The notes under the pieces: generated by a model
Databases searched by the model: none
What the model was told of the DNA's origin: nothing
Seen by the model: the letters and a program-made list of their open reading frames with translations, nothing else
Shown here: positions 28,610 through 48,210 of the stretch, piece by piece
Layout: each line of letters begins with the position of its first letter
Numbering within the stretch: position 1 is the first letter of the stretch
Position numbers and translations under genes: made by a program
From: Nitrospinales bacterium
GTDB lineage: Bacteria; Nitrospinota; Nitrospinia; Nitrospinales; JAJDAT01
DNA: 64,000 bases
Direction of reading: 5' to 3'
Assembly (NCBI GenBank): GCA_046757665.1
Contig: JBHHYO010000002.1
Span: 1-64,000 of the forward strand

Positions 28610-28783
28610 ATCAAACCCCCCTCTTGTTTTAATTTTATCACGCAGTCAATCCAGGATTTGGGTTTTTAAACGATTTTTATTTCCTCCGGACGGCAATTCT
28701 TCCGCAAATGCTTTATAATGAAAAAGAGCTCCTCAAAGAGAAATAAATACCCTGTGGAAGAAATTTTTCTTGGGAGTCTAAAC

Positions 28784-30451
28784 ATGACCAATAAACCCTG
28801 GTTGGACCATTTGACCATCGGGCAGGTCTTGAACACCATATCCGACCGTTTCCCCGATCACGACGCGCTCGTTTTTCCCGCCGCGCAATATCGATCGTCC
28901 TATAACGAGTTTAGAACTAATGTAGATGCAACGGCAAAAGGTCTGCTTGCCTTGGGCATTAACAAGGGAGACTGTGTTGGGATTTGGGCCACCAATGTGC
29001 CCGAATGGGTCATTCTGCAAATGGCCTCGGCGCGTATTGGCGCCGTAATGGTGACAATCAATCCGGCTTACCGCCCCTTCGAATTGAAATATGTCCTCGC
29101 GCAAAGCGATGTAAAAGCCCTTTTCCTTATAGACCATTTCAAAACATCCGATTACTTCGGGATTTTTGATGAAGTTTGTCCAGAGTCCGCAAAGTCCGAA
29201 CCCGGCGGACTCAACAGTCCCACCTTTCCAAAATTGCGCTGGGTGATCAGCCTTAGAGGCAAAACACCACGGGGAATGATTTCATGGATTACCATGTTGG
29301 CCAAAGGTTCCGAAATCAGCGATGAGGTACTGAACGAATCGGCAGAAAAACCACAGGCATCCGACCGGATCAATATCCAATACACGTCCGGAACAACGGG
29401 CTTCCCCAAGGCCGCGATGCTGACGCACCGGAATATTTTGCTGAATGCTTTTTATACCAGCGGCAATCAAGGCTTCACGGAAAACGACCGGGTATGCATT
29501 CCAGTGCCGTTTTATCACTGCTTCGGCTGTGTACTGGGCGTCTTGGGGGCCATGGTTCGCGGAGCGGCAATGATCGTTCCCGCCGAATATTTTTCCTCCA
29601 CCGCCACACTGGACGCCATCGAACACGAGGGGGCAACAGCTATTTACGGTGTGCCGACCATGTTTGTTTCCATGCTGGAAGACTCCACTTTCGCCAGCCG
29701 GAATTTAAGCTCCCTGCGAACCGGCATTATGGCCGGGGCGCCTTGCCTGATTGAAATCATGAATCGGGTCATCAACGACATGGGGGCTCACCAAATCACA
29801 ATCGGCTATGGACTCACGGAGGCTTCGCCCGTGTTTACTCAAACCCGAATCGATGACCCGGTGGAAGTCAGGGTCAACACAGTCGGTTCCCCTATTCCGG
29901 ATGTGGAGGTCAAAATCATCGATCCCAAATCCGGGAAGGAACTCGGCGATGATGAACAAGGCGAAATATGCGTCCGCGGTCACGTTGTCATGCAAGGGTA
30001 TTACAAAGATCCGGAGGGCACGGAACAAACCATCGATAAGGATGGATGGCTCCACTCCGGCGATCTTGCACTGCGTCGAAAAGACGGCAATTACCGCATA
30101 ACAGGCCGAATCAAAGACATGGTGATTCGCGGGGGAGAAAATATCTATCCGCGCGAAATCGAAGAATACCTGTTCACTCATCCCGCGGTCGAGCAAGTAT
30201 CCGTAGTAGGCGTCCCGGACCATAAATTTGGAGAAGAGCTGTGCGCCTGGATTCAATTGAAATCCGGGGTACAAGCAACCGAAGATGAAATTCGCAACTA
30301 TTGTCGGGACATGCTTGCCCATTTCAAAATTCCGCGCTATGTGCGAATAGTTAAATCTTTTCCACAAACCGTGTCCGGTAAAATCCAGAAATTTAAAATC
30401 CGCGAGCAAATGATCCGTGAACTTGGACTCAGCGAGGTAAAATCGAATTAG
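28784..30451 (+). CDS. Acyl-CoA synthetase (AMP-binding)
   Basis: YTSGTTGFPK, GYGLTEASP, RGGENIYPREIEE, SGKIQK; GGGAG RBS before ATG 28784. Confidence 0.92.
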   Translation: MTNKPWLDHLTIGQVLNTISDRFPDHDALVFPAAQYRSSYNEFRTNVDATAKGLLALGINKGDCVGIWATNVPEWVILQMASARIGAVMVTINPAYRPFELKYVLAQSDVKALFLIDHFKTSDYFGIFDEVCPESAKSEPGGLNSPTFPKLRWVISLRGKTPRGMISWITMLAKGSEISDEVLNESAEKPQASDRINIQYTSGTTGFPKAAMLTHRNILLNAFYTSGNQGFTENDRVCIPVPFYHCFGCVLGVLGAMVRGAAMIVPAEYFSSTATLDAIEHEGATAIYGVPTMFVSMLEDSTFASRNLSSLRTGIMAGAPCLIEIMNRVINDMGAHQITIGYGLTEASPVFTQTRIDDPVEVRVNTVGSPIPDVEVKIIDPKSGKELGDDEQGEICVRGHVVMQGYYKDPEGTEQTIDKDGWLHSGDLALRRKDGNYRITGRIKDMVIRGGENIYPREIEEYLFTHPAVEQVSVVGVPDHKFGEELCAWIQLKSGVQATEDEIRNYCRDMLAHFKIPRYVRIVKSFPQTVSGKIQKFKIREQMIRELGLSEVKSN

Positions 30452-30462
30452 TATCGGTTCTC

Positions 30463-31866
30463 ATGAAAACTATTTCACCAAGACCCTTTATGGATAAATT
30501 TGAAACACAGATCACCAATTATGTGCACGGCTTAACTTATCGCGACCTGACGCAAGATGCCGTCCAAGCCGCGAAAGAACGGTATCTGGACAGTTTGGCC
30601 GTTGCGCTTGCCGCATTTCATACCCCTCCGGTGAAAGCCATGAGGAAGTTTGCTCTTGAATCTTCCTCGGCAACAGGCGCAACGGTACTGGGAACCAGGC
30701 ACAAAGCTCCGGTTGATTACGCAACGGTTTACCTGGGCACGATGATCCGGGCGCTTGATTGGAACGACACGTATCTCAACCGGGAGCCGGCCCATCCGAG
30801 CGACAACATTGCCGCCTGTCTCCCCGTGGCGGAAGCGAACGGTAAAACGGGAAAAGACCTGATACTGGCAACTGTTGTTGCATACGAATTACATTGCCGG
30901 CTTTGCGACGCCGCAGGGATTAGAAAAAAAGGATGGGACCACGTGACCTACGGTTCCGTGTCAAGTTCCGCGGCCGCCGCAAAGTTGATGGATTTCTCCA
31001 AGCGGCAAATCCGCGATACACTGGCCATTGCCGTCACGACCGGCAATTACCTGCGGCAAACGCGGGTCGGCACGATTTCGCAATGGAAAGCCGCCGCATT
31101 CGCCCAGGCCGCCCAAAATGCCGTGCGCGCGGCGCTTTACGTCAAACACGGTTTCACCGGGCCCAGCGACATCTTTACTGGCCAACACGGATTTATCAAT
31201 CAGATCACCCTAGGAGAGTTTGACCTTGCCGGGCAATTCGCCGGACCCGACAGCAAGGATTTCAAGATCGCCGATACCTACATCAAATTTTTCCCCGCGG
31301 AATATCACTCCCAAAGCGCCATATGGGCGGCCCTGCAACTCAGGGAGTCCATCGGCCATGAACGCTTGCGGGAGATCGCAAAAATTCATATTGAAACCAG
31401 TTTTCATTCCTATGAGATCATCGGCAAGGAGCCGGCCAAATGGGCGCCGGAAACAAAAGAAACCGCCGACCACAGTCTGCCCTATATCGTGGCCGCCGCT
31501 CTGATAGACGGAAACATCACGCTTCAGCAGTTCGACGATTCTCATTTGAATAATCCCGAACTTCGCTCCCTGATGCAAAAAGTTACTGTCGCCGAAAAAA
31601 AGAAGTACACGGAAATTTATGGAAAATCGTTTCCCAACAAGGTTATCGTCACACTGGCAAACGGCGCCGTCCATGAAAAGGAAGTTTTGGATCCCAAAGG
31701 CCATCCCAACAACCCGTTGACACCAAAAGAAATTGAAACCAAATTCAAAACAGCGGCCGCTCCACTATTGAGCGAAGAAAAACAAAATCAAATAATCGAT
31801 TCCATAGGGTCCCTCGAGAAGATCGAAAACCTGACCGACTTGATGCGGCTGTTGGAGGTCAAATAA
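30463..31866 (+). CDS. prpD: 2-methylcitrate dehydratase (MmgE/PrpD)
   Basis: LDWNDTY, HPSDNI, GWDHV, KFFPAEYHSQ, ETADHSLPY. Confidence 0.88.
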   Translation: MKTISPRPFMDKFETQITNYVHGLTYRDLTQDAVQAAKERYLDSLAVALAAFHTPPVKAMRKFALESSSATGATVLGTRHKAPVDYATVYLGTMIRALDWNDTYLNREPAHPSDNIAACLPVAEANGKTGKDLILATVVAYELHCRLCDAAGIRKKGWDHVTYGSVSSSAAAAKLMDFSKRQIRDTLAIAVTTGNYLRQTRVGTISQWKAAAFAQAAQNAVRAALYVKHGFTGPSDIFTGQHGFINQITLGEFDLAGQFAGPDSKDFKIADTYIKFFPAEYHSQSAIWAALQLRESIGHERLREIAKIHIETSFHSYEIIGKEPAKWAPETKETADHSLPYIVAAALIDGNITLQQFDDSHLNNPELRSLMQKVTVAEKKKYTEIYGKSFPNKVIVTLANGAVHEKEVLDPKGHPNNPLTPKEIETKFKTAAAPLLSEEKQNQIIDSIGSLEKIENLTDLMRLLEVK

Positions 31867-31867
31867 A

Positions 31868-32710
31868 ATGAGCGGGAAAAAACTCCGCGCCTTGCTGAAA
31901 CAAGAAGAGCATGTGGTGATGCCCGGCGCTTACAACGCATTCGTAGCAAAACAAATTGCCGAAGAAGGCTTCCACGGCGTTTATATATCCGGCGCGGGCC
32001 TTTCCAACAGCCTGGGCGTCGCCGACGAGGGCGCACTGGGCCTTGAGGATTTTCTCTATATCGGCGGCTGGATTACCAAGGCCGTCGACATCCCCATCAT
32101 CTGCGACGCAGATACCGGTTTCCAAAACATTGGAGAAACCGTAAGGACATATATTGAGGCGGGGTTTTCAGGATTACATATTGAGGACCAGATTTTCCCA
32201 AAAAGGTGCGGTCATTTATCCGGAAAGGAAGTGATTGCAAGAGATGAGATGATTGCCAAAATAAAAGAAGCTTGCGCGGCCCGCGACCGGTACGATACGG
32301 AATTTGTCATCATCGCCCGAACCGACGCGCGTGGCGCAACCAATATCGACAACGACTCCCAACTCAATGAATCCATCACGAGAGGAAAATTGTATCGGGA
32401 CGCGGGAGCGGACATGATCTTTCCCGAGTCTCTCAGAAATAAAGACGAGTTCGCGGAGTATAGAAGCAAAGTTTCCGGCGACTTACTTGCCAACATGACG
32501 GAATTCGGCAAAACACCTTACCTTAAGGCAAGGGAATTCATGGAACTGGGGTATAAAATCATTCTCTTCCCCGTTTCCCTGTTCAGATACCATGCCGGAC
32601 AGACGAAATCTTTTCTCGCCAGGTTAAAAGAAGAGGGCAGTCAAAAGGAATTGACGCCGGAGATGATGCACAGGTCGGAAATTAACGACATCCTCAATTA
32701 TAAGCCATAG
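31868..32710 (+). CDS. prpB: 2-methylisocitrate lyase
   Basis: DADTGF, PKRCGHL, IIARTDA, LLANMTEFGKTP. Confidence 0.92.
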   Translation: MSGKKLRALLKQEEHVVMPGAYNAFVAKQIAEEGFHGVYISGAGLSNSLGVADEGALGLEDFLYIGGWITKAVDIPIICDADTGFQNIGETVRTYIEAGFSGLHIEDQIFPKRCGHLSGKEVIARDEMIAKIKEACAARDRYDTEFVIIARTDARGATNIDNDSQLNESITRGKLYRDAGADMIFPESLRNKDEFAEYRSKVSGDLLANMTEFGKTPYLKAREFMELGYKIILFPVSLFRYHAGQTKSFLARLKEEGSQKELTPEMMHRSEINDILNYKP

Positions 32711-32719
32711 GAACTGACA

Positions 32720-33898
32720 ATGAATACAATTGACACAGGTCTTGACGGTGTGCCCGTCTGCACCTCTGATATATCCCTGACAACATTGGGAGCGGATGGA
32801 AACCCCATTCTCCTGTACCGGGGATACAGCATATTTGATCTTGTCAAAGGTTTTTTTGAAGAAAGCGTTTATCTGCTCCTTCAAGGCCATCTACCCAGTA
32901 AGGACCAATTCGACGCTTTCACCCAGCAACTCAACACAAACCGCAGTCTCGGTCGACGAATCATCGAACACATGAAAAGTTATCCTGAAAATGTTCACAT
33001 GATGGACTTTCTCCTGACCACTCTGTCCTACGCGCGAATGTTCGATGAGGATTATCACAACCCTTTGTGGCAAAGCCCAAAGTCGGAGGCTGACAAGCTG
33101 GCAAACCTTATTCTCAAAACCGGGATGCGCATGGGCGCAAAGATTCCAACCATCATCGCCAATGGATACAGAATACAGAGCGGAAAACCCGTTGTTCCAC
33201 ACAACCCATCCTTGAACTACGCCGCCAATTTTCTGCACATGCTGGGCATCGAACCCGAAGACGAAGCGGTAAAAGCGCTGAACACCGTGCTTATTCTTTA
33301 TTTGGAGCACACCATCAACTGCTCCACCTTCGCCTCCCTGGTTGCGGAATCATCGGGAACGGACCCCTATTCACCTCTGCTGGCCGGGGGAATCTCTTTA
33401 AAGGGAGTCTTTCATGGCGGGGCAAATGAGTGCACGGCCGATATGCTGGAAGAAATCGGCAAACCGGAAAATGCCGAGGCATATATCCACGGCAAGCTAG
33501 AAAGAAAGGAAATCGTTCCCGGGTTCGGCCATCGCTTGAAACACTATAAAGATAATGTCGAATCAAGAGTACGCATCGCCGAAGGAATCGCCAGGCCGCT
33601 TGCGAAAAAAAGGGGGCAAGGTCATTTATTTGAGATCTATGACATCATCAGCCGGATCATGCACAACGAAAAGGGACGCACCCCAAATGCCGATTTGCCC
33701 ATCTGTATTCTTTTAAAAATCATCGGCGTGCCCAAAACCCTCAACACACCCCTGTTCCAGGCAAGCCGGCATTTCGGCTGGGTGGCCAACAACGTAAGAC
33801 AACGAAAGGCCAACGGCCCTTTATATCGACCCACGCAAAAATACACCGGCCCCGGCACGGATAAAATAAAAACTTATGTCCCCCTGGAAAAACGATGA
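32720..33898 (+). CDS. prpC: Citrate/2-methylcitrate synthase
   Basis: LLYRGY, EHTINCSTFA, HGGANE, GFGHR, PNAD; located next to prpDB. Confidence 0.75.
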   Translation: MNTIDTGLDGVPVCTSDISLTTLGADGNPILLYRGYSIFDLVKGFFEESVYLLLQGHLPSKDQFDAFTQQLNTNRSLGRRIIEHMKSYPENVHMMDFLLTTLSYARMFDEDYHNPLWQSPKSEADKLANLILKTGMRMGAKIPTIIANGYRIQSGKPVVPHNPSLNYAANFLHMLGIEPEDEAVKALNTVLILYLEHTINCSTFASLVAESSGTDPYSPLLAGGISLKGVFHGGANECTADMLEEIGKPENAEAYIHGKLERKEIVPGFGHRLKHYKDNVESRVRIAEGIARPLAKKRGQGHLFEIYDIISRIMHNEKGRTPNADLPICILLKIIGVPKTLNTPLFQASRHFGWVANNVRQRKANGPLYRPTQKYTGPGTDKIKTYVPLEKR

Positions 33899-33904
33899 TT
33901 CAAA

Positions 33905-35206
33905 ATGACCCAACATAAAATTCGCGGTTTCATCGGTGTCAAAAGCAATGACGGCCACGACGCCGCCATTCTGGTCGTTGCCGACACCCTGAAAAAGGGT
34001 GGTATTGAAGTGATCCTTGGCGGTTATGATCTAAGCGTCGACAAATTTGTCGAAGCCATTATCCAGGAAGGCGTACATTTCGCCGGCATCAGTTCATACA
34101 ACGGCGGTCACATCCCCTTTTTCAAGGCGATAAAAAAAAATTTACAAAACCGTCATTACCCGCATATTCATCTGATCGGCGGCGGCGGAGCAACAATCAC
34201 ACCGGATGATATTGAACGTCTCGAATGCGAGGCCGGCATTGATAAAATTTTTCGAAGCGGCGAGGCAAACCTGATCGTACCATTTATCAACGACCATTAT
34301 GATTTTTCCGTTGTTCCCGACCATCCCGAAAAGCTTCTGAAGGATTTGCCGGAAGGTGACGTAGCGGCCATCTCCTGCTTGATGAATCTGGCCGAGGAAA
34401 AAGCTCGCCTGGATACTTTGCTCGACAAAAAGAAGGCGGAGCTGAACATTGCGGCCGATCCGCAACAAGCTCACCGATTACTGGATGAACCTCTTGAAGA
34501 AAACGGACCGACAGGACGGAAGGTATTCGAACAGTCGAAACGCTATGCGATCTGCTTGTCGAAACTGGACGGCCTGACCGACAAAGCCCCAACCAGGGTT
34601 TACGGAATAACCGGCCGTGGCGGGTCCGGCAAAAGCACCTTGCTGGATGAGATCATTCTTCGCTTCTTTCACGACAAGCGAATGAACGACAGAAAAATTG
34701 CCATCCTTGCCGTCGATCCCACCTCAGACCGTTCCGGCGGCGCTCTTCTGGCAGATCGCATCGCATACATGTATGCCACGGACAAAACCTGGGTCGATAC
34801 AAGTAGAATTTTTATACGAAGCGTCGCTTCACGCGGTTACGGCAACGGCGTCGCCCGGGCGCTTCCGGATATGGTGAAAATTTTGAAAACCGCCGGATAT
34901 GACGTGTTTATCGAATCCTACGGAACCGGTCAACCCGACACAGGAATTACCGGCTTGACCGACCAATCCATCCTTGTCATCACACCGGATATCGGCGGCG
35001 CATCGCAAATTGCCAAAGAGGAAATGCTGGGACTGCCGGAAGTCTACATTGTCCTGAACAAAAACGAACTTCGCGGCGCAAGACACGTCATAAGCTTATT
35101 GCAAGGCAAGGTCAGCGACGACCGGTTGTTCCTCACAACCGCCATCCAGCATCGCAATTCCGGTGTCGACCGACTTTATCAATCGCTAACCGAAGGACAT
35201 GTCTGA
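33905..35206 (+). CDS. Cobalamin-binding domain + MeaB-like G-protein (N-terminal half of an IcmF-like mutase)
   Basis: DGHDAA, SSYNGGH, GGGG, GITGRGGSGKST, AVDPTS..GGALLADRI, NKNE. Confidence 0.88.
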   Translation: MTQHKIRGFIGVKSNDGHDAAILVVADTLKKGGIEVILGGYDLSVDKFVEAIIQEGVHFAGISSYNGGHIPFFKAIKKNLQNRHYPHIHLIGGGGATITPDDIERLECEAGIDKIFRSGEANLIVPFINDHYDFSVVPDHPEKLLKDLPEGDVAAISCLMNLAEEKARLDTLLDKKKAELNIAADPQQAHRLLDEPLEENGPTGRKVFEQSKRYAICLSKLDGLTDKAPTRVYGITGRGGSGKSTLLDEIILRFFHDKRMNDRKIAILAVDPTSDRSGGALLADRIAYMYATDKTWVDTSRIFIRSVASRGYGNGVARALPDMVKILKTAGYDVFIESYGTGQPDTGITGLTDQSILVITPDIGGASQIAKEEMLGLPEVYIVLNKNELRGARHVISLLQGKVSDDRLFLTTAIQHRNSGVDRLYQSLTEGHV

Positions 35207-36950
35207 GATGTCCCTGGCCGAAATTATCAATGCAAATGAAAATTATAATCGATCCGTCGAAGCCTCAGTGGAAAAGGCCAAAAAGAACCGGGCCTACCAA
35301 AATAAACTCCAGCGGGAATGGGATGAAAAACGACACACCATCGTATCGCACAAATTGCCGACAGGAATTGACGTCCCCCTGATTGCGGTTCCCTGTATGG
35401 ACCATCCGGCACAGATAGCCCGTTACCAAGGAGAATGGGGGTTTCCGGGAGAGTTTCCATACGGTTTATCCATTTATCCAAAAACTTTCCTGATTATTGA
35501 CGGAAAGCGCGAGCACGAAGAACCCACCAGGATATTCGCGGGCCTTGGATCTCCCGAAATGACCAACGCCCGATTTCATCTCATCATGGGGCAACAACAA
35601 TCCAGGCGGCTGAGCACCGCATTCGATACCAATACTCTGCTGGGAAGAAGCGCCGACAACCCCGATTACCTCCTGGACGTCGGCGAGGGCGGCGTATCGG
35701 TTTCAACCTACCAGGATATTCTCACGCTATATAACGGTTTTTTTTCGGACGATGCCAGCATCTCCATGACGATCAACGGCCCTTCCCTTTGGATGACCGC
35801 CGCCCGTTTTCAAGCGGCCAGAGAACGCGGACAGAATTTGAAAAAAATCCGGGGAACCTCGCAAACCGATCCGTGCAAGGAAGATGACGCCCAAAACGAA
35901 CTGCTTTTTCCCCTGGATAAATCCATCAAGCTGGCAATGGACATGTTTGAATGGTGTGCGCAAAACACCCCATCTTATTATCCGATCAATGTCAGCGGTT
36001 ACCATATCGAACAAAAAGGCGCCACGCCGATCCAACAAGCCGCCTTCACCCTGGCAAACGGATTCGTTTATGTCGATGCCGCTTTGCAACGCGGAATGAG
36101 CATCAATTCCATCGGCAAGCGTCTTCCTTTCTTTTACACATCGGGGATGGAAATCGAATACATCGCCCTGTTAAGCGCCGTGAGAAGAATCTGGGCGGTA
36201 GCCTTACGGGATGTCTATGGCGCGGATGACCCGGCCGCGCAAAAATTGAAGGCCCACGTACAAACATCCGGAAGAAGCCTGTACGAGCGGGAAATCCGGA
36301 ATAACATCACTCGGACGGCTCTCGAATTATTTCATGCTTTGTTGAATTATCCGCAAGCCCTCCACAGCAATTCGTATGATGAACCAATCACGACACCCAC
36401 GGAAGAAGCCGTTCGCATTGCCTCAGATGCGCAAGCTATCCTGTTTGAAGAAATGGGCGGATTCAAGGATATGATGGCGCACTTAAGCGACGGCTCCGGG
36501 CGAATGCAAGTTTATCATTTGGTCATGAAAGGTGTTCTGGATTATTTCCGGCAAATTGACGAATTCGGCGGCACCCTGCAGGCAAAAGCCGACGGATTTT
36601 TCCGCGACGAAATCGCACAATCATCCGCCTTGTACGACAAACAGGTGCACACCGGTGAAAGACGGATTATTGCGATCAATCGCTACCGGCAAGGGCGGAA
36701 AGAAAACAAGGCCGTCCCGCGCGTGGAAATTCCATGGGACCTCAAACAAAAGCGTTTTGAAGACGTAAAACGGTTCAAGAGCCAAAGGGACCAAAGAAAA
36801 GTCAAAGAAAAAATCCTGCAATTGCAAAACACGGCGGACAAGGACGACAATATCTTTGAGATAACACTGGAAATCGTTAAGGACGTAACCATTGATGAAT
36901 GGACCCGAGCCCTTCAAGAAGTTTATGGAATGTATCGAAGAAAAATTTAG
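35199..36950 (+). CDS. Acyl-CoA mutase TIM-barrel subunit (IcmF/isobutyryl-CoA mutase-like)
   Basis: PGEFPY, EPTRIFAG, RLSTAFD, SMTINGP, QTSGRSL, LHSNSYDE; start 35199 or 35208. Confidence 0.88.
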   Translation: MSEMSLAEIINANENYNRSVEASVEKAKKNRAYQNKLQREWDEKRHTIVSHKLPTGIDVPLIAVPCMDHPAQIARYQGEWGFPGEFPYGLSIYPKTFLIIDGKREHEEPTRIFAGLGSPEMTNARFHLIMGQQQSRRLSTAFDTNTLLGRSADNPDYLLDVGEGGVSVSTYQDILTLYNGFFSDDASISMTINGPSLWMTAARFQAARERGQNLKKIRGTSQTDPCKEDDAQNELLFPLDKSIKLAMDMFEWCAQNTPSYYPINVSGYHIEQKGATPIQQAAFTLANGFVYVDAALQRGMSINSIGKRLPFFYTSGMEIEYIALLSAVRRIWAVALRDVYGADDPAAQKLKAHVQTSGRSLYEREIRNNITRTALELFHALLNYPQALHSNSYDEPITTPTEEAVRIASDAQAILFEEMGGFKDMMAHLSDGSGRMQVYHLVMKGVLDYFRQIDEFGGTLQAKADGFFRDEIAQSSALYDKQVHTGERRIIAINRYRQGRKENKAVPRVEIPWDLKQKRFEDVKRFKSQRDQRKVKEKILQLQNTADKDDNIFEITLEIVKDVTIDEWTRALQEVYGMYRRKI

Positions 36951-37151
36951 CCCTCCAGCCGGTGGTTGCCCCGACCACGAAAAATCCATGGCCGGCAAGT
37001 CGCTTTCCCCGCTAATTTTTCACCTTTTTCTTCCCCTCCTTTCCTCCAGGAGCGTTACAATAATAAAAAGGAAATCATTTCACCTCTACTCCCAATAACC
37101 TGAAAATTTTCAGGAGCCAGTTTCGATTCCAATTTTAATTTAGGAGGTATT

Positions 37152-37970
37152 ATGAGCCGCCTAATGTATAGAACATTCGATATTTTTTGGCATGGGATCC
37201 AAAAGAACGTCCACAATCATCCTGTCATTACCCGCAATCCTTATTGCAAATGGTTTAAACAAGGGGAAATAAGCCACAACCAAATGGTCAACTTGTTTGA
37301 ACAGTTTGCCGTCTTCTCCAAGTGGTTTTTGCTGGCCCAATTGATGCGAGTCCTCCACGCATCAGACATTGAAGCTGAAACGCACGCCCGGTTTATTTTA
37401 GCCAATGAATTAGGAGTTGGAATAAATCCGGACGGGTCAACGGAAAACCAGCCGTTCAAAACTCCCTGGGCGCATATCAATTGGCTACGTGAAACCGCAA
37501 AACCTCTCAAACTGAATACGCAAATACTAGGGAATTGGGAAACCGCTTCACCTTCCACCCGGCATTTCATCGGTTCACTTGAAAAAACCTACGGAAGCAA
37601 AGATGCTGAAATCAGCCGAGGCGCGAGCTACGCCATCGAAACCTGGGCCGCATGGGGTATTGGCAAGGGAGAAGAACACGAATCCAACAACTTCTGGAAA
37701 GAGCTGATCACAGGTATTGAGCGATATAACGAAACGAACCACCTAAATGGAAACCGCGCTATCCCCCTCGATTTTTTCCTTTTCCATTTCAACAGTGAAA
37801 AAAGACACGGCGACAATGTGCTTGATGAAATGAAGACCTCTTTTCACAGCCCACGCTTTAATGCCCAAAAGTTTTTTAAAGGAGCCCATCAGGCGCTGGA
37901 GGCCATATATACATTCTGGCTTGGCCTGGACAAAACAAGAAAAGCTATCGGCAAAAAATCGGCCGCATGA
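37152..37970 (+). CDS. Heme-oxygenase-like diiron protein (HDO; CADD/PqqC/TenA fold)
   Basis: Ligand pattern E86, H108, E163, H212-x3-E216-x2-H219; strong RBS AGGAGG. Confidence 0.7.
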   Translation: MSRLMYRTFDIFWHGIQKNVHNHPVITRNPYCKWFKQGEISHNQMVNLFEQFAVFSKWFLLAQLMRVLHASDIEAETHARFILANELGVGINPDGSTENQPFKTPWAHINWLRETAKPLKLNTQILGNWETASPSTRHFIGSLEKTYGSKDAEISRGASYAIETWAAWGIGKGEEHESNNFWKELITGIERYNETNHLNGNRAIPLDFFLFHFNSEKRHGDNVLDEMKTSFHSPRFNAQKFFKGAHQALEAIYTFWLGLDKTRKAIGKKSAA

Positions 37971-38149
37971 TTTTTTTAGTGAAAGCGTTTCCAGCAAAAG
38001 AATCCCCATTGGACAAGTGATCATCCTAAATTCAAGACCATCCTTGGAGGCGCAACCTCAACAAGGCACTGAAAAGCCTCAAAATGTATCAGCTTTAAGA
38101 TTCACACTCCGCGTCAAGTTTCTCACCAACCCGGAAAGTTTTGAATATC

Positions 38150-39283
38150 ATGTCACACGGATCATCCTTAGGCATAAACAAACTATTTTCCATCGAATTT
38201 GTTGTTGATTTTTTCGATCGCTCCCGCAATTTCTACGCAAAAAAAATGGGCTTTGTAGAAACCCACCATTCCACTCCGGAATGGGAGGCTCTGTTCCACA
38301 GCAAGGGAGTTTTTTTCACTGCAAACGACATCAGAGTATTGGTTGTATCTCCAACGTCATCGCACGGATACACGGCCGAATTCTTAAAAATTCTTTCCCC
38401 GGGGATACGAAGAGTCACTTTTCAAGTGAGCGACCTGGATAAGACGATCGATTACCTGGCTGATCACGATGCAACTTTTCTCCACGGCGACAAGGAATTT
38501 TTTTCTAAAAACACCCGTCACCGCTTTATCACCATAACCACGCCAATTGGTTTCCTGGAATTTACCTTCTTGCAAATCGACGGAGACGAGGACGAAATTC
38601 CCATGTTTGAAAAAATCGAATCAGCCCCTGCCTCACCAATGCCTTCCTATTTGAAAATCGATCATTTGACCATTAACTCGCGGACTCTTTACCCGGTCAG
38701 TCATTTTTTCGAACATGTAATGGATTTAAAAAAATTCTGGACGGTGGCATTTCATACGCCAGATTTTAAATCCGGAAAAAAGGGAACCGGATTATCATCA
38801 AAAGTGATGTGGGATCCTCAGTCGAAAATAAAATTCGCCACCAACGATCCTCTTTACCCTCATTTCAACAGTTCGCAAATCCAGACTTTTATCAACCAGA
38901 ATCACGGAGCCGGCATCCAGCACATTGCCCTGGAAGTTGATAATTTAATCGATACCGCAAGAACTCTGCGGTCCCGCGGCATCGAATTTTTGGATACGCC
39001 CGACAGTTATTACAACCTTTTGCCGGAAAGGATGAAGACGCTTAATATCGGCGAATTAAAAGAGGACCTGGAGGAACTGAAATCCGAACGCATCCTCGTG
39101 GATGGAAAAAACGGGAACTACCTGCTACAAATATTTTTAAAAGATGCTTCCCTCCTTTACCACGAGGAAAAAGCCGGACCGTTCTTCTATGAACTGATCC
39201 AGCGCCACGGCCACGAGGGTTTTGGCGAAGGAAATTTTCGAGCTTTGTTTGAAGCGATTGAGTATCAGGCTCCCCACTCATGA
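38150..39283 (+). CDS. hppD: 4-hydroxyphenylpyruvate dioxygenase
   Basis: IDHL, SQIQTF, GAGIQHIAL, YLLQIF, ELIQR, GFGEGNF. Confidence 0.92.
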   Translation: MSHGSSLGINKLFSIEFVVDFFDRSRNFYAKKMGFVETHHSTPEWEALFHSKGVFFTANDIRVLVVSPTSSHGYTAEFLKILSPGIRRVTFQVSDLDKTIDYLADHDATFLHGDKEFFSKNTRHRFITITTPIGFLEFTFLQIDGDEDEIPMFEKIESAPASPMPSYLKIDHLTINSRTLYPVSHFFEHVMDLKKFWTVAFHTPDFKSGKKGTGLSSKVMWDPQSKIKFATNDPLYPHFNSSQIQTFINQNHGAGIQHIALEVDNLIDTARTLRSRGIEFLDTPDSYYNLLPERMKTLNIGELKEDLEELKSERILVDGKNGNYLLQIFLKDASLLYHEEKAGPFFYELIQRHGHEGFGEGNFRALFEAIEYQAPHS

Positions 39284-40131
39284 AACTACTACGGTATAAA
39301 ACCAAAGAGGGTCGGCAAAACCACGGTATTTTAGTAGATCAATCTATTTTCCCATTGGTCGATTTGAGCACTACCGAGGCGCTTAGCCAACCCGACTTAA
39401 TAAATAGTCATGGGAAGCGGATTATGCAACAACCACCCGTCTCCATCGGAGATGTCACTTTGTTGCCGCCGGTTGAAAACCCCGGCGCTTTTTTGGATTT
39501 TTACACATTTGAGGAGCATGTTAAAAACGCCCGCAAAAAACGCGGCTTGGACATGGTAGCAGAGTGGTACCAATTCCCCGTTTGGTATAATGGGTCGCCC
39601 CGTTGTTTTAGCGGGGACCGCTCTACAGTCATTTTTCCCGCAAACGAGAATAAGAAGGATTTTGAGCTGGAACTCGCCATCGTTCTTAAAAAAAAATGCT
39701 CCAAAGTAAATGTGGAGCAAGCTTCGGAATATATCGGCGGGTATACCATCTTGAACGATTTTTCGGCCAGGGAGTTGCAAGGAAAAATCATGCGTATTGG
39801 GCTTGGCCCCGCCAAGGCCAAGGATTTTAGCACCGGTCTGGGCCCTTATCTGGTCACCCCGGATGAAATCGGCGATCCCCGAAACCTGAAAATGCGGGCT
39901 TGGGTCAACGGTCAATTGTGGTCGGAGGGTAACAGCGGCACGTCTCACTACACGTTTGAAGAGATGATTGCTTTCGCTTCCGAATATCAAACATTATATC
40001 CTGGGGATGTTCTGGCAAGCGGAACTGTAGGGTCCGGATGCGGTTTGGAACAAGACCGGTTTCTGAACAAGGGCGATCAAGTTGTGCTGGAAATCGAAGG
40101 TATCGGCAAACTGACTCATTTTGTGGGGTAA
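39280..40131 (+). CDS. fahA: Fumarylacetoacetate hydrolase family protein
   Basis: DFYTFEEH, DFELEL, LNDFSARELQ, AKDF, PGDVLASGT; lies between hppD and hmgA. Confidence 0.82.
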   Translation: MKLLRYKTKEGRQNHGILVDQSIFPLVDLSTTEALSQPDLINSHGKRIMQQPPVSIGDVTLLPPVENPGAFLDFYTFEEHVKNARKKRGLDMVAEWYQFPVWYNGSPRCFSGDRSTVIFPANENKKDFELELAIVLKKKCSKVNVEQASEYIGGYTILNDFSARELQGKIMRIGLGPAKAKDFSTGLGPYLVTPDEIGDPRNLKMRAWVNGQLWSEGNSGTSHYTFEEMIAFASEYQTLYPGDVLASGTVGSGCGLEQDRFLNKGDQVVLEIEGIGKLTHFVG

Positions 40132-40135
40132 TCCT

Positions 40136-41305
40136 ATGTTGAAATATTTACAATTTGGTTCGATTCCACCCCGGCGTCATATCGCACATTACAACGGCAA
40201 CCAACTTTTGAACGAATATTGCTTCACCCGCGAGGGTTTTGAACAGCCTCACTCCACCCTGTACCTTTATAATCCGCCCACGGGGGAAACAGCTTGCGAA
40301 GCCTACCCAGAGGCCTTGTGGGCCAATCCAACCAAACGAAGAGATCCTCTTTTGCAAAGAAGACACTTTAAAAGTGGACTTTTTCCTCCGCAAAAGAATT
40401 TCATCACCGGACGCACAATCCTCGCGTTTAACCAACACCTGCGCTACGGCCTGTGTCATCCGCAATCCCACGAGAACAGTTTTTTTGCCAATAATGACGG
40501 GGATGAATTGTTTTTTCTTTTCGCGGGCGATATTGAGGTTCAGTCCCTGTTCGGCAAGCTTCAGCTAACGGCGGGGGATTATTTGATCATTCCCCGGTCT
40601 TGCCCCTACCGATTCAGCTTTTCCCAATCGCCCCAGTTGCTTTACGTCGAGGCAAGAGGCCAAGTCCGGATTCCCCGGGCCTACTGCAACGATGCGGGGC
40701 AATTAAACATGGACGCCCCTTATTCCGAACGTAGCTTTAAAACCCCGAGCTGGGACAATCTTTTATTTGAAAACGACGACGCAACGACGATCATCCGCAA
40801 ACGCCAGAAGCAATTCACCAAAACTGTTTACGAAAAAAACTTTTTCAAAATGACCGGTTGGGACGGCTACGTCTATCCCCTGGCCATCAATTTAAAAAAC
40901 ATTCAACCCAAAACCGGCAGAGTTCATCTTCCCCCCTCATCCCACATGACTTTTGCCGGAGAGGGTTTTGCCGTCATGAGCTTCCTGCCCAGGATACTCG
41001 ACTTTGACAAGGAAGCCATCCCTTGTCCGTTTTACCACTCGTCCGTGAATTGCGACGAACTCCTTTTCTACTACTCTGGAAATTTTACCAGCCGGAAAAA
41101 CATCGGCAAAGGTTCCATCAGTTTTCATCCGTCGGGCATTCCCCATGGCCCACACCCCGGAGCCTACGAAAAATCCATTGGACTCAAGAAAACGGAAGAG
41201 GAAGCGGTCATGGTCGATACTTTCGATCCCTTGTTCCTGACCGAAGAAAGCCAGGCACTGGAGGACCCTGATTATCCTGCCAGCTGGAGGAATGACCAAC
41301 CATGA
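40136..41305 (+). CDS. hmgA: Homogentisate 1,2-dioxygenase
   Basis: NNDGDEL, GWDGYVYP, HLPPSSH, PFYHSSVNCDE, HPSGIPHGPHPG, AVMVDT. Confidence 0.92.
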   Translation: MLKYLQFGSIPPRRHIAHYNGNQLLNEYCFTREGFEQPHSTLYLYNPPTGETACEAYPEALWANPTKRRDPLLQRRHFKSGLFPPQKNFITGRTILAFNQHLRYGLCHPQSHENSFFANNDGDELFFLFAGDIEVQSLFGKLQLTAGDYLIIPRSCPYRFSFSQSPQLLYVEARGQVRIPRAYCNDAGQLNMDAPYSERSFKTPSWDNLLFENDDATTIIRKRQKQFTKTVYEKNFFKMTGWDGYVYPLAINLKNIQPKTGRVHLPPSSHMTFAGEGFAVMSFLPRILDFDKEAIPCPFYHSSVNCDELLFYYSGNFTSRKNIGKGSISFHPSGIPHGPHPGAYEKSIGLKKTEEEAVMVDTFDPLFLTEESQALEDPDYPASWRNDQP

Positions 41306-41946
41306 CCGTCCACACGGAATTCCAAACCATCAGACCTCGAGAGCAGTATTGGGTGGATATTTATCACTTGATGAATTCCATCATCCAACCCCGGCCTATC
41401 GCCTGGATTTCCACCGTTTCGGAAAACGGTATATACAATCTGGCTCCGTTCAGCTATTTCAATATATGCTCGATGAATCCACCGATCATTTCCAATTCCA
41501 TTTTTTATAACCGGGACGGATCGGAAAAAGACACACTGAGAAACATCAAATCGAACGGGAAATACGTCGTTGGAGCGGTGGGCATAAATTCCGCGGAAAA
41601 AGCCAACGTCAGTTCCGCACCTTTCGCCCCCGATGCCGACGAATTCAAGAAGGCACAGGTTCCATTTGTCGATTGCGGCGCCAACGAACCCCGGCTGGTA
41701 GCCGAAAGTCCCGTGCAACTGAAATGCACGTTGAATCAACTCATCAAATTAGGGAACGGCGCGGGTGTCGGCACATTGGTACTGGGAGACGTCAACGAAA
41801 TTTTAATTTCCCGAAAATTGAATCACCCTCAATGGCAAAAAGGCATTCCTCCCGACCGCATGAACAACGTTGGCAGAATGGGAGCGGATTATTACGCCAA
41901 GACAACCGATCTTTTTCAAATGCCTCGGCCCGTCATCAAAAAATAG
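41302..41946 (+). CDS. Flavin reductase-like (DIM6/NTAB) protein
   Basis: PRPIAWIST, NLAPFSYFN, KDTLRNI, GRMGADYY. Confidence 0.88.
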   Translation: MTVHTEFQTIRPREQYWVDIYHLMNSIIQPRPIAWISTVSENGIYNLAPFSYFNICSMNPPIISNSIFYNRDGSEKDTLRNIKSNGKYVVGAVGINSAEKANVSSAPFAPDADEFKKAQVPFVDCGANEPRLVAESPVQLKCTLNQLIKLGNGAGVGTLVLGDVNEILISRKLNHPQWQKGIPPDRMNNVGRMGADYYAKTTDLFQMPRPVIKK

Positions 41947-41994
41947 CCGATTGCCCTGGGCCATCCCATCGGCGCCACCAACGCAAAAATCCTG
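41947..41994 (+). pseudogene. Relic of a classical thiolase C-terminal motif
   Basis: Translates PIALGHPIGATNAKIL; the thiolase signature is (A)IALGHP(I/L)GA(S/T)GA(R/K)I. Confidence 0.7.
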
Positions 41995-43950
41995 ATGAGC
42001 ACGATACTCTGGAAACCCAGCCCGGAACAAATCAAGCAATCCCGGATGTATCAATTTCTGGAAGCGGTGAATGAACATTATTCCCTGGACCTGAAAACCT
42101 ATCAACAGCTTCATGCTTGGTCCGTTAAAAATATTTCAGAGTTTTGGAAATTTTACAGCCAGTTCGCAAACATTCATTTTCACAAAACCGCCGACAAAAT
42201 TCTTTCATCAAAATCCATGCCTGGAGCCCGATGGTTTACCGGCGCCGAATTGAACTACGCCGAAAACCTCTTGCGGGCTTCCGCCGACAAAACTGCCATT
42301 ATCAGCAAGGCGGAAGGTCAACCCATCCGGCGCATGACTTATGGCCGGCTGTCCGATGACGTTACCAGGCTTGCTTCCGCTTTCAAGGATGCCGGGATCA
42401 AGGCTGGAGACCGCATCGCCGGTTTTCTCCCCAATATTCCGGAGGCCGTTGTCGGCCATCTGGCCGCGGCCGCCGTGGGAGCCGTTTGGAGCTCCTGCTC
42501 GCCGGACTTTGGACGTCAGGGAGTAAAGGACCGTTTCGGACAAATCGAACCCAAAATTTTGATTTGTGCAAGCGGCTACAATTACAATGGAAAATATTTT
42601 CCGGTTTTGGAAACTGTTGAAGCGCTCGCCGGGGAAGTGAACAGCTTGGCTCATATTATTCTCGTCCCCTTCCCGGACCACGCACCACGCAAGGACCGCA
42701 TTAATTTCTCCTCCGTTTTCACTTGGGAAGAGTTTATCGGCAGGGGAGCTTCTCCGGATTTTCAGTTCCATCCTTTTCCTTTTTCCCATCCCCTGTGCAT
42801 TTTGTATTCCTCCGGCACAACGGGCCTGCCCAAATGTATCGTTCACGGGACCGGAGGCACTTTGTTGCAACACCACAAGGAGCACGCCCTGCATACAGAC
42901 ATCAATTCGGAGGACATCGTTTTTTACTTCACCACCTGCGGTTGGATGATGTGGAACTGGCTGATTTCGGCCCTGGCCCAACAAGCAACCATCGTTCTTT
43001 ACGAAGGCTCTCCCTCCTACCCGACTCTGGAAACATTGTGGAAACTGGTTGAAGAAACACGAATCACAATTTTCGGAACCAGTCCAAAATTTCTCTCATC
43101 GAATCAGAAGCAAAACCTGATTCCCAGGCAATGCGCCGACTTGCAAAGTCTCAAGGCCGTGCTTTCCACCGGCTCTCCCCTCGACGCAGAAAGCTTTCGC
43201 TGGGTTTACGAAAATGTAAACCGGCACGTTCAACTATCCTCCATAAGCGGCGGAACGGATATTATCTCCTGTTTTATGCTGGGCAACCCCATGTTTCCGG
43301 TAAGAGCTGGGGAAATTCAATGTCTCGGCCTGGGCATGGATGTTGCGGCCCTGGATGAGCAAAACCATCCGGTTCTGAATCAAAAGGGGGAACTGGCCTG
43401 CCTGTCTCCCGCGCCGTCCATGCCGATTCATTTCTGGGACGACCCGGACGGAGAAAAATATCGAGATGCTTATTTCAACAAAGTTCCCGGAGTATGGATC
43501 CATGGCGATTTCATAGAAATCAAGAAGCATGGAGGAGTCCTCGTTTACGGCCGGAGCGATGCAACGCTTAATCCCGGCGGAGTACGCATCGGCACCGCAG
43601 AGATTTACCGGATTGTCGAGCAGTTGGATGAAATCCAGGATAGCTTGATCATTGGCGTGGAAAAAGACACCGATATCCGAATGATTCTTTTTGTGGTGCT
43701 AGTCCATCCGTTGCGTCTGGAAGAACCCCTGATGAAAAAAATCAAAAGCCGTCTCAAAACAGAAGCCAGCCCGCGCCATGTGCCGCAGGAAATCCACCAA
43801 GTCAAGGAAATCCCCCACACCCTCAATGGGAAAAAAGTCGAACTCATCGTCCGCAACATATTTCAAGGAATCCCGGTAAGCAATAAAGACGCCCTCGCCA
43901 ATCCCGACTGCCTGGCAGAATTTGAAGCACTCCGCTCGCAAAAAGCTTAA
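41995..43950 (+). CDS. acsA: Acetoacetyl-CoA synthetase
   Basis: WSSCSPDFG, SSGTTGLPKCIVH, TTCGWMMWNW, GRSDATLNPGGVRIGTAEIY. Confidence 0.93.
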   Translation: MSTILWKPSPEQIKQSRMYQFLEAVNEHYSLDLKTYQQLHAWSVKNISEFWKFYSQFANIHFHKTADKILSSKSMPGARWFTGAELNYAENLLRASADKTAIISKAEGQPIRRMTYGRLSDDVTRLASAFKDAGIKAGDRIAGFLPNIPEAVVGHLAAAAVGAVWSSCSPDFGRQGVKDRFGQIEPKILICASGYNYNGKYFPVLETVEALAGEVNSLAHIILVPFPDHAPRKDRINFSSVFTWEEFIGRGASPDFQFHPFPFSHPLCILYSSGTTGLPKCIVHGTGGTLLQHHKEHALHTDINSEDIVFYFTTCGWMMWNWLISALAQQATIVLYEGSPSYPTLETLWKLVEETRITIFGTSPKFLSSNQKQNLIPRQCADLQSLKAVLSTGSPLDAESFRWVYENVNRHVQLSSISGGTDIISCFMLGNPMFPVRAGEIQCLGLGMDVAALDEQNHPVLNQKGELACLSPAPSMPIHFWDDPDGEKYRDAYFNKVPGVWIHGDFIEIKKHGGVLVYGRSDATLNPGGVRIGTAEIYRIVEQLDEIQDSLIIGVEKDTDIRMILFVVLVHPLRLEEPLMKKIKSRLKTEASPRHVPQEIHQVKEIPHTLNGKKVELIVRNIFQGIPVSNKDALANPDCLAEFEALRSQKA

Positions 43951-44117
43951 ACGGATCGATCGAAGCCGAAATCACCAGCACATTCGGATGATGGCTTCCG
44001 CCTGTTTTATTACTTGGCATTACCGGTCATTCTATGTCAGGATATTATCGCCGCCCCTGGAACCGGCCGCGAGGGGCCTCTTTGGCTTGTACAGAAAGAA
44101 CGATTTGGAGAAATAAA

Positions 44118-44882
44118 TTGTTTGTGGGTTCCAAGCTCTGGAAAGGGCAAAAACATTATCTCAACAAGATGACTCTGGCGGATCTGGTGGCGGCCTATTT
44201 CGCCTATCCCGCCATCCAGGCCTACCTTTCTCTCACCGCAGTCAGCATCGGGCTGACCCTCCTTTGGGCGAAAGATATCGGGGCCATCGTTCTGTCTGTC
44301 GGCGCGGCAGTGGTGATTTACGGATTAGTCTGGTACCTTCTGCACCGATTCATTCTCCACGGACAGTTTCTCTACAAATCGCCCCGCACGGCGGCTCTGT
44401 GGAAACGCATCCACTTCGATCATCATCAGGACCCCAACGACCTCGGTGTTTTGTTCGGCGCACTGCATACCACCCTGCCGACGATTTTTTTCATGACCGT
44501 CCCGATAGGCTGGCTGATCGGCGGCCCGGCCGGCGGCGCGGCGGCGTTCGCGGCGGGGCTGGTGACCACCTGTTATTATGAGTTCTGCCATTGCATCCAG
44601 CATCTGGCCTATACCCCAAAATGGGCCTTTCTCCGCCGCATCAAGAAACTTCACCTGGCGCATCATTTCCATAACGAGCAAGGCAATTACGGCATCACAA
44701 ATTTTTTCTGGGACCGGCTCGCGGGAACCTATTACCCAAGCACCAACCAAGTCCCACGTAGCGCCACCGTTTTCAACCTCGGTTATGTGAACAAGGAATC
44801 CGAGCAATTCCCCTGGGTGGCAGAACTGTCCGGCGCAAATGTTGACACCGATCCAGGTTGCGCCCAAAGAAAAACGGGCTAA
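44118..44882 (+). CDS. Fatty acid hydroxylase/sterol desaturase family protein (candidate ceramide hydroxylase)
   Basis: His boxes HRFILH, HFDHH, HCIQH, HLAHH; TTG start after GGAG (alternative ATG 44169). Confidence 0.85.
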   Translation: MFVGSKLWKGQKHYLNKMTLADLVAAYFAYPAIQAYLSLTAVSIGLTLLWAKDIGAIVLSVGAAVVIYGLVWYLLHRFILHGQFLYKSPRTAALWKRIHFDHHQDPNDLGVLFGALHTTLPTIFFMTVPIGWLIGGPAGGAAAFAAGLVTTCYYEFCHCIQHLAYTPKWAFLRRIKKLHLAHHFHNEQGNYGITNFFWDRLAGTYYPSTNQVPRSATVFNLGYVNKESEQFPWVAELSGANVDTDPGCAQRKTG

Positions 44883-47369: not shown

Positions 47370-48210
47370 TGCACAGCAAAAACCGATGAAGTCCGAGCGT
47401 TGTAATATATTGTGCCCCCATGAGGTAAGCCATGGGGACCAGGAAAACGTCAAGAACACCAAGAACGGCAAACAGGGCGATAAGAAAAAGAGGCAGGTCG
47501 AGACCGTTCCACTTCCAGACAGCCATCATAAGTTTGGCTTTTTGGTAATACTGTTCCCGTTGCCGCTCCGTCAGCAGAGTTTTTTCAACAATGTTTTTTT
47601 TCTCTTCATCAAGCCGGCTGAAAGAAAGCCAGCGTCCCTGAAACAAAAACCGCTGAAACTGCAAGTAATAAAAATAACTCCGGAGAACAACGGACTTCTC
47701 CTTTCTCATTTTCTGAAAAGTTTCCAGAATTTCCCTTTTATTCCCGTCGTATCCATCGCGCACCAACGTGGTCATGCTTTGTTTGCAATAATCGTAGGAT
47801 ATGGCCCGCAAAATAGTTAACAGCGCGATGCAGGCCAGGGAACCATAGTATGCCCCCATGCCAACCATGATGCCGATGACGACGGCGCCATAAGCAATGT
47901 AACCGGCAATGCCGTCGAGGAGCCTTCCCCATTCACTTGATCGGCCCGTGGCTCGTGCAAGTTGTCCGTCCACGCAATCCAGGATCAGGGTAATCTCCAA
48001 AAGCACCCCTCCCCAAACCATCGACGAGACACTCCCCCGGCTAAAGACGTACCCCGACCACATACCAAACAGAACGGAAGCATAGGTCACCTGATTGGGA
48101 GTGACCGCGGTTTTTTTCAAAAAGCCAACCATGGCTCCGGCAACAGGCACATGCAAATAACGGTTGACCGGTTCTTCAAGGTCTTTCAGAAAATGGCCGG
48201 ATTTTTCCAT
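47353..48210 (-). CDS. CDP-alcohol phosphatidyltransferase family protein
   Basis: TPNQVT and D-x2-DG-x2-AR...G-x2-LD motif (DCVDGQLARATGRSSEWGRLLD). Confidence 0.92.
   Translation of the reverse strand: MEKSGHFLKDLEEPVNRYLHVPVAGAMVGFLKKTAVTPNQVTYASVLFGMWSGYVFSRGSVSSMVWGGVLLEITLILDCVDGQLARATGRSSEWGRLLDGIAGYIAYGAVVIGIMVGMGAYYGSLACIALLTILRAISYDYCKQSMTTLVRDGYDGNKREILETFQKMRKEKSVVLRSYFYYLQFQRFLFQGRWLSFSRLDEEKKNIVEKTLLTERQREQYYQKAKLMMAVWKWNGLDLPLFLIALFAVLGVLDVFLVPMAYLMGAQYITTLGLHRFLLCNENNS

Follow-up and report, generated by a model that had tools for sequence, protein, structure and literature searches.

How is phenylalanine hydroxylated in organisms that carry genes of the homogentisate pathway and no gene for the pterin-dependent phenylalanine hydroxylase PhhA? 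The question is raised by a gene cluster in a stretch of 64,000 nucleotides (hereafter the window; positions 1 to 64,000, forward strand, of contig JBHHYO010000002.1, GenBank assembly GCA_046757665.1) from a Nitrospinales bacterium. The cluster includes a gene for a 272-residue protein, P0001, which is a divergent representative of the superfamily of heme-oxygenase-like dimetal oxidases/oxygenases (HDOs) and belongs to the phenylalanine/tyrosine-homogentisate pathway. What is new here is that genes of the P0001 family (hereafter HDO genes) complement those for PhhA (Biopterin_H domain, PF00351): the two are mutually exclusive in two clades and take the same place beside hmgA. The HDO protein may do the same job as PhhA, as a pterin-independent phenylalanine or aromatic hydroxylase. 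The gene, its ribosome binding site and the codons of its predicted metal ligands are located as follows.

37142-37147, plus strand: Shine-Dalgarno box AGGAGG, 4 nt 5' of the HDO ATG, as read from the sequence
37152-37970, plus strand: gene for the HDO-fold dimetal oxygenase P0001, assigned by open reading frame (ORF), alignments and structural model
37407-37409, plus strand: codon of ligand E86
37473-37475, plus strand: codon of ligand H108
37638-37640, plus strand: codon of ligand E163
37785-37787, plus strand: codon of ligand H212
37797-37799, plus strand: codon of ligand E216
37806-37808, plus strand: codon of ligand H219

Fold and metal ligands of P0001

Profile searches do not recognise P0001. 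No Pfam family was matched at E <= 0.01, with just two chance-level matches at E <= 10, and PF14518 (Haem_oxygenas_2) gave no match even at the latter threshold. Neither did any NCBIfam family match at E <= 0.1, TIGR04305 included, nor any PDB sequence at E <= 10. A precomputed PF14518 match is found in only 4 of 120 listed homologues, and the family lies outside the current PF14518 model. Relatives numbered 122 at E <= 0.001 in a search of 5.8 billion proteins and 278 among 1.84 billion cluster representatives in a profile-free search.

According to excerpts of PMC11363339 and PMC13108848, HDOs are defined by a seven-helix fold together with the ligand set E-H-E-H-(D/E)-H, three His and three carboxylates, carried by core helices 1-3. 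The AF2 model of P0001 (pLDDT 93.1) has this seven-helix heme-oxygenase-like fold, as the initial annotation had supposed, and its top Foldseek matches are CADD, BesC, PolF, UndA and HrmI. The complete ligand set is also present: E86, H108, E163, H212, E216 and H219 stand exactly where they had been proposed and are invariant in an alignment of 44 homologues. They are likewise invariant in ten sequences that include a distant, 34-37% identical subfamily and in eight among which are algal and cytochrome b5-fused proteins. A broader alignment of 27 rows, the one with the most gaps, has no fully invariant column and lists only H108 and E216 at >=90%; it takes in the truncated P0235 and divergent rows, for instance P0151 and P0156, in which several ligands are missing. 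The H-x3-E-x2-H stretch of P0001 aligns with the same stretch of BesC (E 0.18).

P0001 deviates in the position of its first two ligands. The unusually long spacer between them, already noticed in the initial annotation, is a 21-residue loop in the model, where E86 ends the helix 73-87 and H108 starts the helix 108-115; in the distant subfamily the spacer is some 20 residues longer again. The invariance of H108 suggests that it nevertheless reaches the metal site, which would hold Fe/Fe or Mn/Fe. Compared with known HDOs (HrmI, BesC, FlcD, PolF, UndA, SznF), P0001 has at least 21 residues between its first Glu and first His, which the model places on two helices, and it is only 9-15% identical to the solved members.

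The same genome encodes a second heme-oxygenase-like protein (DUF3050/PF14518; L081:1348-2187, contig C1), whose gene is flanked by those for a C5-epimerase-like protein and a sulfatase. It was considered as a relative and rejected, as it is unrelated to P0001 (hhalign probability 0.7%).

Linkage to homogentisate-pathway genes

Downstream of the HDO gene the initial annotation had read hppD-fahA-hmgA, which is right in kind: the three genes encode an HPPD-like protein, a small FAH-family protein and a divergent HgmA-like protein, and are followed by two more of the cluster.

38141-39283, plus strand: HPPD-like VOC dioxygenase (PF00903; TIGR01263 247.8 bits, below the cut-off of 277)
39280-40131, plus strand: small FAH-family hydrolase, 283 residues (PF01557 at 1.9e-53)
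40121-41305, plus strand: divergent homogentisate 1,2-dioxygenase-like cupin (HgmA-like), 394 residues (PF20510, 39.6 bits)
41302-41946, plus strand: flavin reductase-like protein, 214 residues (PF01613)
41995-43950, plus strand: acetoacetate-CoA ligase (NF002937 915.5 bits, TIGR01217 842.5 bits, both above cut-offs)

The HPPD-like ORF begins with TTG as listed, and the ATG at 38150 is the likelier start. The 283-residue protein is presumably a maleyl- or fumarylacetoacetate hydrolase; among proteins of solved structure it is related to HpcE/HpaG, FAHD1 and maleylpyruvate hydrolase. The HgmA-like cupin reaches only 44 bits with TIGR01015 (cut-off 510); the solved protein that it resembles most is human HGD, 1ey2 (E 2.4e-10), with which the stretches bearing His, Glu and His align. 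The flavin reductase is most similar, among solved proteins, to component B of NTA monooxygenase, 3bpk (E 2.8e-24). Acetoacetate-CoA ligase takes up the end product, which fits a pathway ending in acetoacetate. Neither phhA nor an aminotransferase gene was found in the window cluster, in agreement with the initial annotation.

A locus scan with one genome per species yielded 73 loci encoding a P0001 relative. Going by the titles of their records, they come from Nitrospinota, Nitrospirales, Methylomirabilota, Melainabacteria, Elusimicrobiota, an anammox metagenome-assembled genome (MAG), Terriglobia/Acidobacteriota and Bdellovibrionota, and also from MAGs labelled Gamma- and Deltaproteobacteria. 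Neighbours were counted within six genes of the HDO gene; many contigs are short, which makes the counts lower bounds. An HgmA(-like) neighbour is found in at least 26 of the 73 loci, FAH in at least 24, acetoacetate-CoA ligase in at least 15, and HPPD and flavin reductase in at least 10 each, the window coming in addition in all five cases; thiolase is found in at least 13. Linkage to HgmA(-like) and FAH genes spans Nitrospinota, Nitrospirales, Methylomirabilota, Melainabacteria, the anammox MAG and the gamma- and delta-labelled MAGs.

Gene order is far from constant. In most Nitrospinota and Nitrospirales the HDO gene is convergent to an HPPD-FAH-HgmA-reductase-thiolase-ligase operon. In the window it is co-directional. 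The gene, which the initial annotation had described as heading the cluster, is not strictly an operon head, being convergent in most relatives. It is the first gene of the operon in Methylomirabilota, closes the anammox locus, where HPPD, HgmA-like, a HisC-type aminotransferase and FAH precede it, and is divergent from HPPD in two delta-labelled MAGs. In L067 it shares 4 nt with a canonical hmgA, and in L072 it comes after a canonical fahA. This persistence of the linkage through rearrangement is good evidence of shared function. In ten Elusimicrobia loci the HDO gene stands alone beside, and divergent from, a LysR regulator, with the HgmA-like and FAH genes elsewhere in the genome. In Elusimicrobia (L075:6700-8745, L076:7584-9404, L077:7176-9011) proteins of 606-681 residues carry the HgmA-like domain at their C-terminal end, while their N-terminal ~300 residues have no Pfam match, and a YgfZ/CAF17-type folate-binding protein is encoded near the Elusimicrobia HgmA-like gene in five of six loci.

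The coupling is also phyletic. The initial annotation had proposed co-occurrence with hppD as a check, and in several phyla homologues are indeed linked to HPPD, HgmA and FAH genes or occur together with them. Within the window's phylum the HDO gene is found in 26 of 120 genomes and an HgmA-like gene in 23. Of the 57 genomes of high quality, the 16 that have HDO are the very ones that have HgmA-like, and not a single genome of the phylum has HgmA-like without HDO. The three genomes with HDO only are 70-78% complete, and one of these HDO copies is a fragment with stops. Several of the HgmA-like matches were reported with one in-frame TGA (genomes G083, G067, G117, G056, G081, G082). Across several phyla, HgmA_N was matched in 33 of 40 carrier genomes as compared to 1 of 14 control genomes; for three carriers without a match (G013, G014, G021) a weak HgmA-like neighbour was found by tblastn. 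Ten clusters that lack HPPD hold a VOC protein of 227-261 residues, which shows weak similarity only with the C-terminal domain of HPPD and hydroxymandelate synthase and may be a minimal HPPD. It occurs in Methylomirabilota, Melainabacteria and gamma-labelled clusters (e.g. L024:8362-9045, L026:9335-10114, L033:8789-9562).

The window cluster lacks two genes seen in related loci. Thiolase, which stands between flavin reductase and acetoacetate-CoA ligase in 13 of them (range L002-L023), is missing at 41946-41995; also absent from the window is the aryl-pyruvate-decarboxylase-like thiamine pyrophosphate (TPP) enzyme present in six. On the 5' side a gap of 200 bp separates the HDO gene from a split IcmF-like mutase and genes of the methylcitrate cycle: positions 28718-36950 hold propionate/methylcitrate genes (acyl-CoA ligase, PrpD, PrpB-like and the citrate-synthase-type PrpC), followed by the mutase, with its B12-binding domain and MeaB GTPase fused in one gene (33905-35206) and the mutase barrel in the next (35199-36950). 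Directly 3' of the cluster a membrane diiron protein of the fatty-acid-hydroxylase family is encoded (44034-44882, plus strand), convergent with an MMPL transporter gene (44958-47471, minus strand). A promoter and terminator scan of 36800-38300 returned no promoter-like site and a single terminator-like site, on the minus strand inside the HPPD gene, which is within chance.

Complementarity with PhhA

Two steps are without a gene in the HDO clusters, phenylalanine hydroxylation and maleylacetoacetate isomerisation. The window's own genome (97.6% complete) has no Biopterin_H domain and no maiA over cut-off. Biopterin_H was found in 0 of 59 carrier handles, among them 0 of 40 carriers and 0 of 5 further carriers, a total in which some Nitrospinota genomes are perhaps counted under two handles. 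The absence of phhA, which the initial annotation had offered as a check, hence extends to every carrier examined.

The most informative group is the class of genome G034, in which 37 of 38 genomes have an hmgA-type match, 30 of them above cut-off. Ten of the 38 carry HDO only, 26 PhhA only, none both and two neither, one of these two being also without hmgA. The HDO gene adjoins hmgA in all ten carriers, and in relatives without HDO it is the Biopterin_H protein gene that adjoins hmgA, abutting it in L084. Locus L085 consists of a cox operon followed by hmgA-HDO, and L086 of a cox operon, hmgA and a Biopterin_H gene; as the flanking cox operon is the same, the HDO and Biopterin_H genes occupy the same slot. 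Exclusion was also seen in the order of G036 (35 genomes), with HDO in 7, PhhA in 11, both in none and neither in 17. Both phyletic complementarity with PF00351 and a shared genomic position, as would mark a PhhA analogue, were thus observed.

In a phylogeny built from 30 full-length hmgA genes in the class of G034, three changes of the HDO label are required, two of which are forced by well-supported branches, and each HDO contrast is opposite to that of Biopterin_H. Naive Fisher tests give p = 1.4e-7 for this class and p = 0.07 for the order of G036, values that exaggerate the association, since related genomes do not count as independent.

PhhA uses a mononuclear iron and tetrahydropterin. 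By contrast, a dimetal site and no pterin are predicted for HDO; the two are unrelated in fold and cofactor, and their relation is one of analogy, not of membership. Pterin-4a-carbinolamine dehydratase proved uninformative as a marker, being present in the own genome yet in 6 of the 14 control genomes too. Genomes of the class of G034 that lack HDO have the Biopterin_H domain beside hmgA within proteins of ~600 residues (L084:4419-6227, L088:3766-5523, L086:4953-6329). Their C-terminal ~300 residues were considered as a possible HDO domain and dismissed, having no Pfam match and not being HDO-like. Some of these genomes also carry an ordinary PhhA of 260-300 residues.

Proposed role and competing explanations

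We put the probability that HDO is a pterin-independent phenylalanine or aromatic hydroxylase that replaces PhhA at roughly 45%. In this role HDO would carry out an O2-dependent para-hydroxylation without pterin, either of L-phenylalanine to tyrosine or of a phenylpyruvate-like phenylalanine skeleton. The product would pass through an aminotransferase, the HPPD-like, the HgmA-like and the FAH-like enzymes to acetoacetate, which would be activated by acetoacetate-CoA ligase. Two extra electrons per turnover would be drawn from the clustered flavin reductase and, in some relatives, from a fused cytochrome b5.

Several observations bear on this electron supply. The flavin reductase is of the type that serves two-component monooxygenases and stands as an orphan in the cluster in 11 loci (ten and the window); no large subunit of a flavin monooxygenase is encoded in the window. 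Four protein clusters have an N-terminal cytochrome b5 fused to the HDO domain. Three of these fusions were checked (P0136, P0274, P0320) and retain all six ligands; the fourth (P0235) is truncated. According to excerpts of PMC11363339, FlcD is the only characterised HDO that does without an auxiliary reductant. The b5 fusions, the clustered flavin reductase and this reductant need together fit an oxygenase that takes two electrons per turnover in the manner of a monooxygenase, and the flavin reductase (41302-41946) is a candidate electron donor of HDO in the window. One member of the cytochrome b5 branch has 2544 relatives at E <= 1e-10, with Prymnesium parvum, Emiliania huxleyi and Chrysophaeum taylorii among their sources; the family hence extends to eukaryotic algae, haptophytes and a pelagophyte (P0136, P0274, P0235, P0320; P0312, P0315, P0335). 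Among other architectures, a class I methyltransferase domain is fused N-terminally to the HDO domain in P0150 (555 residues), a single metagenomic cluster with three members, and no long fused form was found in a weak search that covered only 973-2775 residues.

A number of findings weigh against a hydroxylase that replaces PhhA. The hmgA tree offers just two to three independent contrasts within one class, with which a sign test cannot reach significance, and in the order of G036 the Fisher test remains at 0.07, with neither gene in 17 of the 35 genomes. The complementarity moreover comes from a subfamily 32-37% identical to the window protein, in other phyla, albeit with the same ligands. 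In the window's own phylum Biopterin_H is absent in five of five carriers and equally in five of five non-carriers; its absence there therefore says little, and no complementarity is visible. Pathway coupling is incomplete: the HgmA_N match is missing in 7 of 40 carriers, HPPD is found at E <= 1e-10 in just 16 of 40, two Acidobacteriota loci (L060, L061) have no pathway neighbour at all and the flavin reductase is limited to Nitrospinota/Nitrospirales clusters. The first Glu and first His lie on different helices in the model, the canonical place, according to excerpts of PMC13108848, being core helix 1. A term search of that 2026 mini-review did not return 'aromatic hydroxyl' among the HDO reactions.

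The HgmA-like/FAH coupling would be explained equally well by an HDO-type oxidase for a different step that feeds or serves the homogentisate pathway, such as oxidative deamination of tyrosine to 4-hydroxyphenylpyruvate, hydroxylation of (hydroxy)phenylacetate to homogentisate or the handling of reactive quinone by-products. HPPD is missing in 24 of the 40 carriers at the threshold given above, which makes another route to the ring-cleavage substrate conceivable; six clusters contain an indole/phenylpyruvate decarboxylase-like TPP enzyme (TIGR03394 359 bits, below cut-off), five Elusimicrobia loci an N-methyltryptophan-oxidase-like flavoprotein near HDO, and known HDOs cleave or rearrange amino acids (excerpts of PMC13108848). 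Such an oxidase predicts neither the exclusion of PhhA nor its replacement at the same locus, however, and the anammox operon already holds a HisC-type aminotransferase, so that a second tyrosine-deaminating enzyme is not needed there; we regard such an oxidase as rather unlikely, though as next in probability after the hydroxylase. The second step without a gene suggests a different substitution, in which HDO stands in for the glutathione-dependent isomerase MaiA or otherwise acts after ring cleavage: no cluster contains an isomerase gene, and maiA over cut-off was found neither in the own genome nor in 37 of 40 carriers. It is, however, present over cut-off in three carriers (G021, G033, G034), and in the class of G034 its four occurrences among 38 genomes are split evenly, two with and two without HDO, which shows that HDO does not track the isomerase. 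Relatives that bear hmgA without HDO also lack maiA, the small FAH family includes a direct maleylpyruvate hydrolase (6jvv), by which the isomerase step is perhaps bypassed, and neither a full 3His/3carboxylate O2-activating site nor cytochrome b5 fusions would be expected of an isomerase. An isomerase substitute is accordingly improbable.

Lower still is the likelihood of a non-catalytic accessory to the iron dioxygenases, engaged in metal or O2 sensing, metal delivery or the like. It would account for the co-occurrence with two Fe(II) dioxygenases and for the solitary gene divergent from a LysR regulator in the ten Elusimicrobia loci, but no neighbour is constant enough in the gene order to hint at a partner, even very divergent members retain all the catalytic ligands and the cytochrome b5 fusion points to redox turnover. 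The initial annotation had named p-aminobenzoate synthesis of the CADD type as its alternative. The self-sacrificing synthases CtCADD and NePabS (1rcw, 8va9; TIGR04305) do resemble P0001: they are its best Foldseek match, have the same ligand set and act on a tyrosine-type aromatic ring. P0001 is ~60 residues longer and catabolic in setting, and TIGR04305 matched neither it (E <= 0.1) nor anything else in the genome. Nor does the protein replace a missing pabABC route, as the own genome has a pabB-type gene that scores at the family cut-off (327.9 bits, or 329.5 with neighbours, against 328.4), and the patchy occurrence of HDO (26 of 120 genomes) tracks HgmA-like and not the need for folate. 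This is the least credible of the explanations considered.

A phenylalanine hydroxylase role for HDO would differ from what is described for the superfamily both in reaction, aromatic C-hydroxylation not being a described HDO reaction, and in setting, the context of P0001 being primary catabolism and that of the known HDOs natural-product biosynthesis. No paper linking an HDO to homogentisate or to phenylalanine hydroxylation was found in a literature search outside of which lay subscription-only papers and supplements, and by term search the 2026 mini-review (PMC13108848) is silent on both. The hppD-hmgB-hmgA operon of the Bacillus cereus group is likewise a homogentisate pathway for tyrosine and phenylalanine breakdown, and excerpts of its description (PMC4457819) mention neither an isomerase nor an HDO-type gene. 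More tentatively, P0001 and its relatives might form a family of dimetal phenylalanine 4-hydroxylases that repeatedly displaced PhhA across many phyla and that occurs, sometimes fused to cytochrome b5, in haptophyte and pelagophyte algae as well.

In textbooks the hydroxylation of phenylalanine is bound up with a single enzyme family and a pterin cofactor. If the proposed role is correct, a second, unrelated solution would fill a gap in the metabolism predicted for homogentisate-pathway organisms without PhhA, among them nitrite oxidisers, Melainabacteria, Elusimicrobia, Acidobacteriota and marine algae. According to excerpts of PMC13108848, about a dozen of the more than 10,000 members of the HDO superfamily have been validated. 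With the P0001 family, an HDO would for the first time hydroxylate an aromatic carbon and take part in a textbook catabolic pathway; aromatic C-hydroxylation would thereby be added to the reactions of the superfamily, and annotators could put a name to a family that numbers thousands of proteins.

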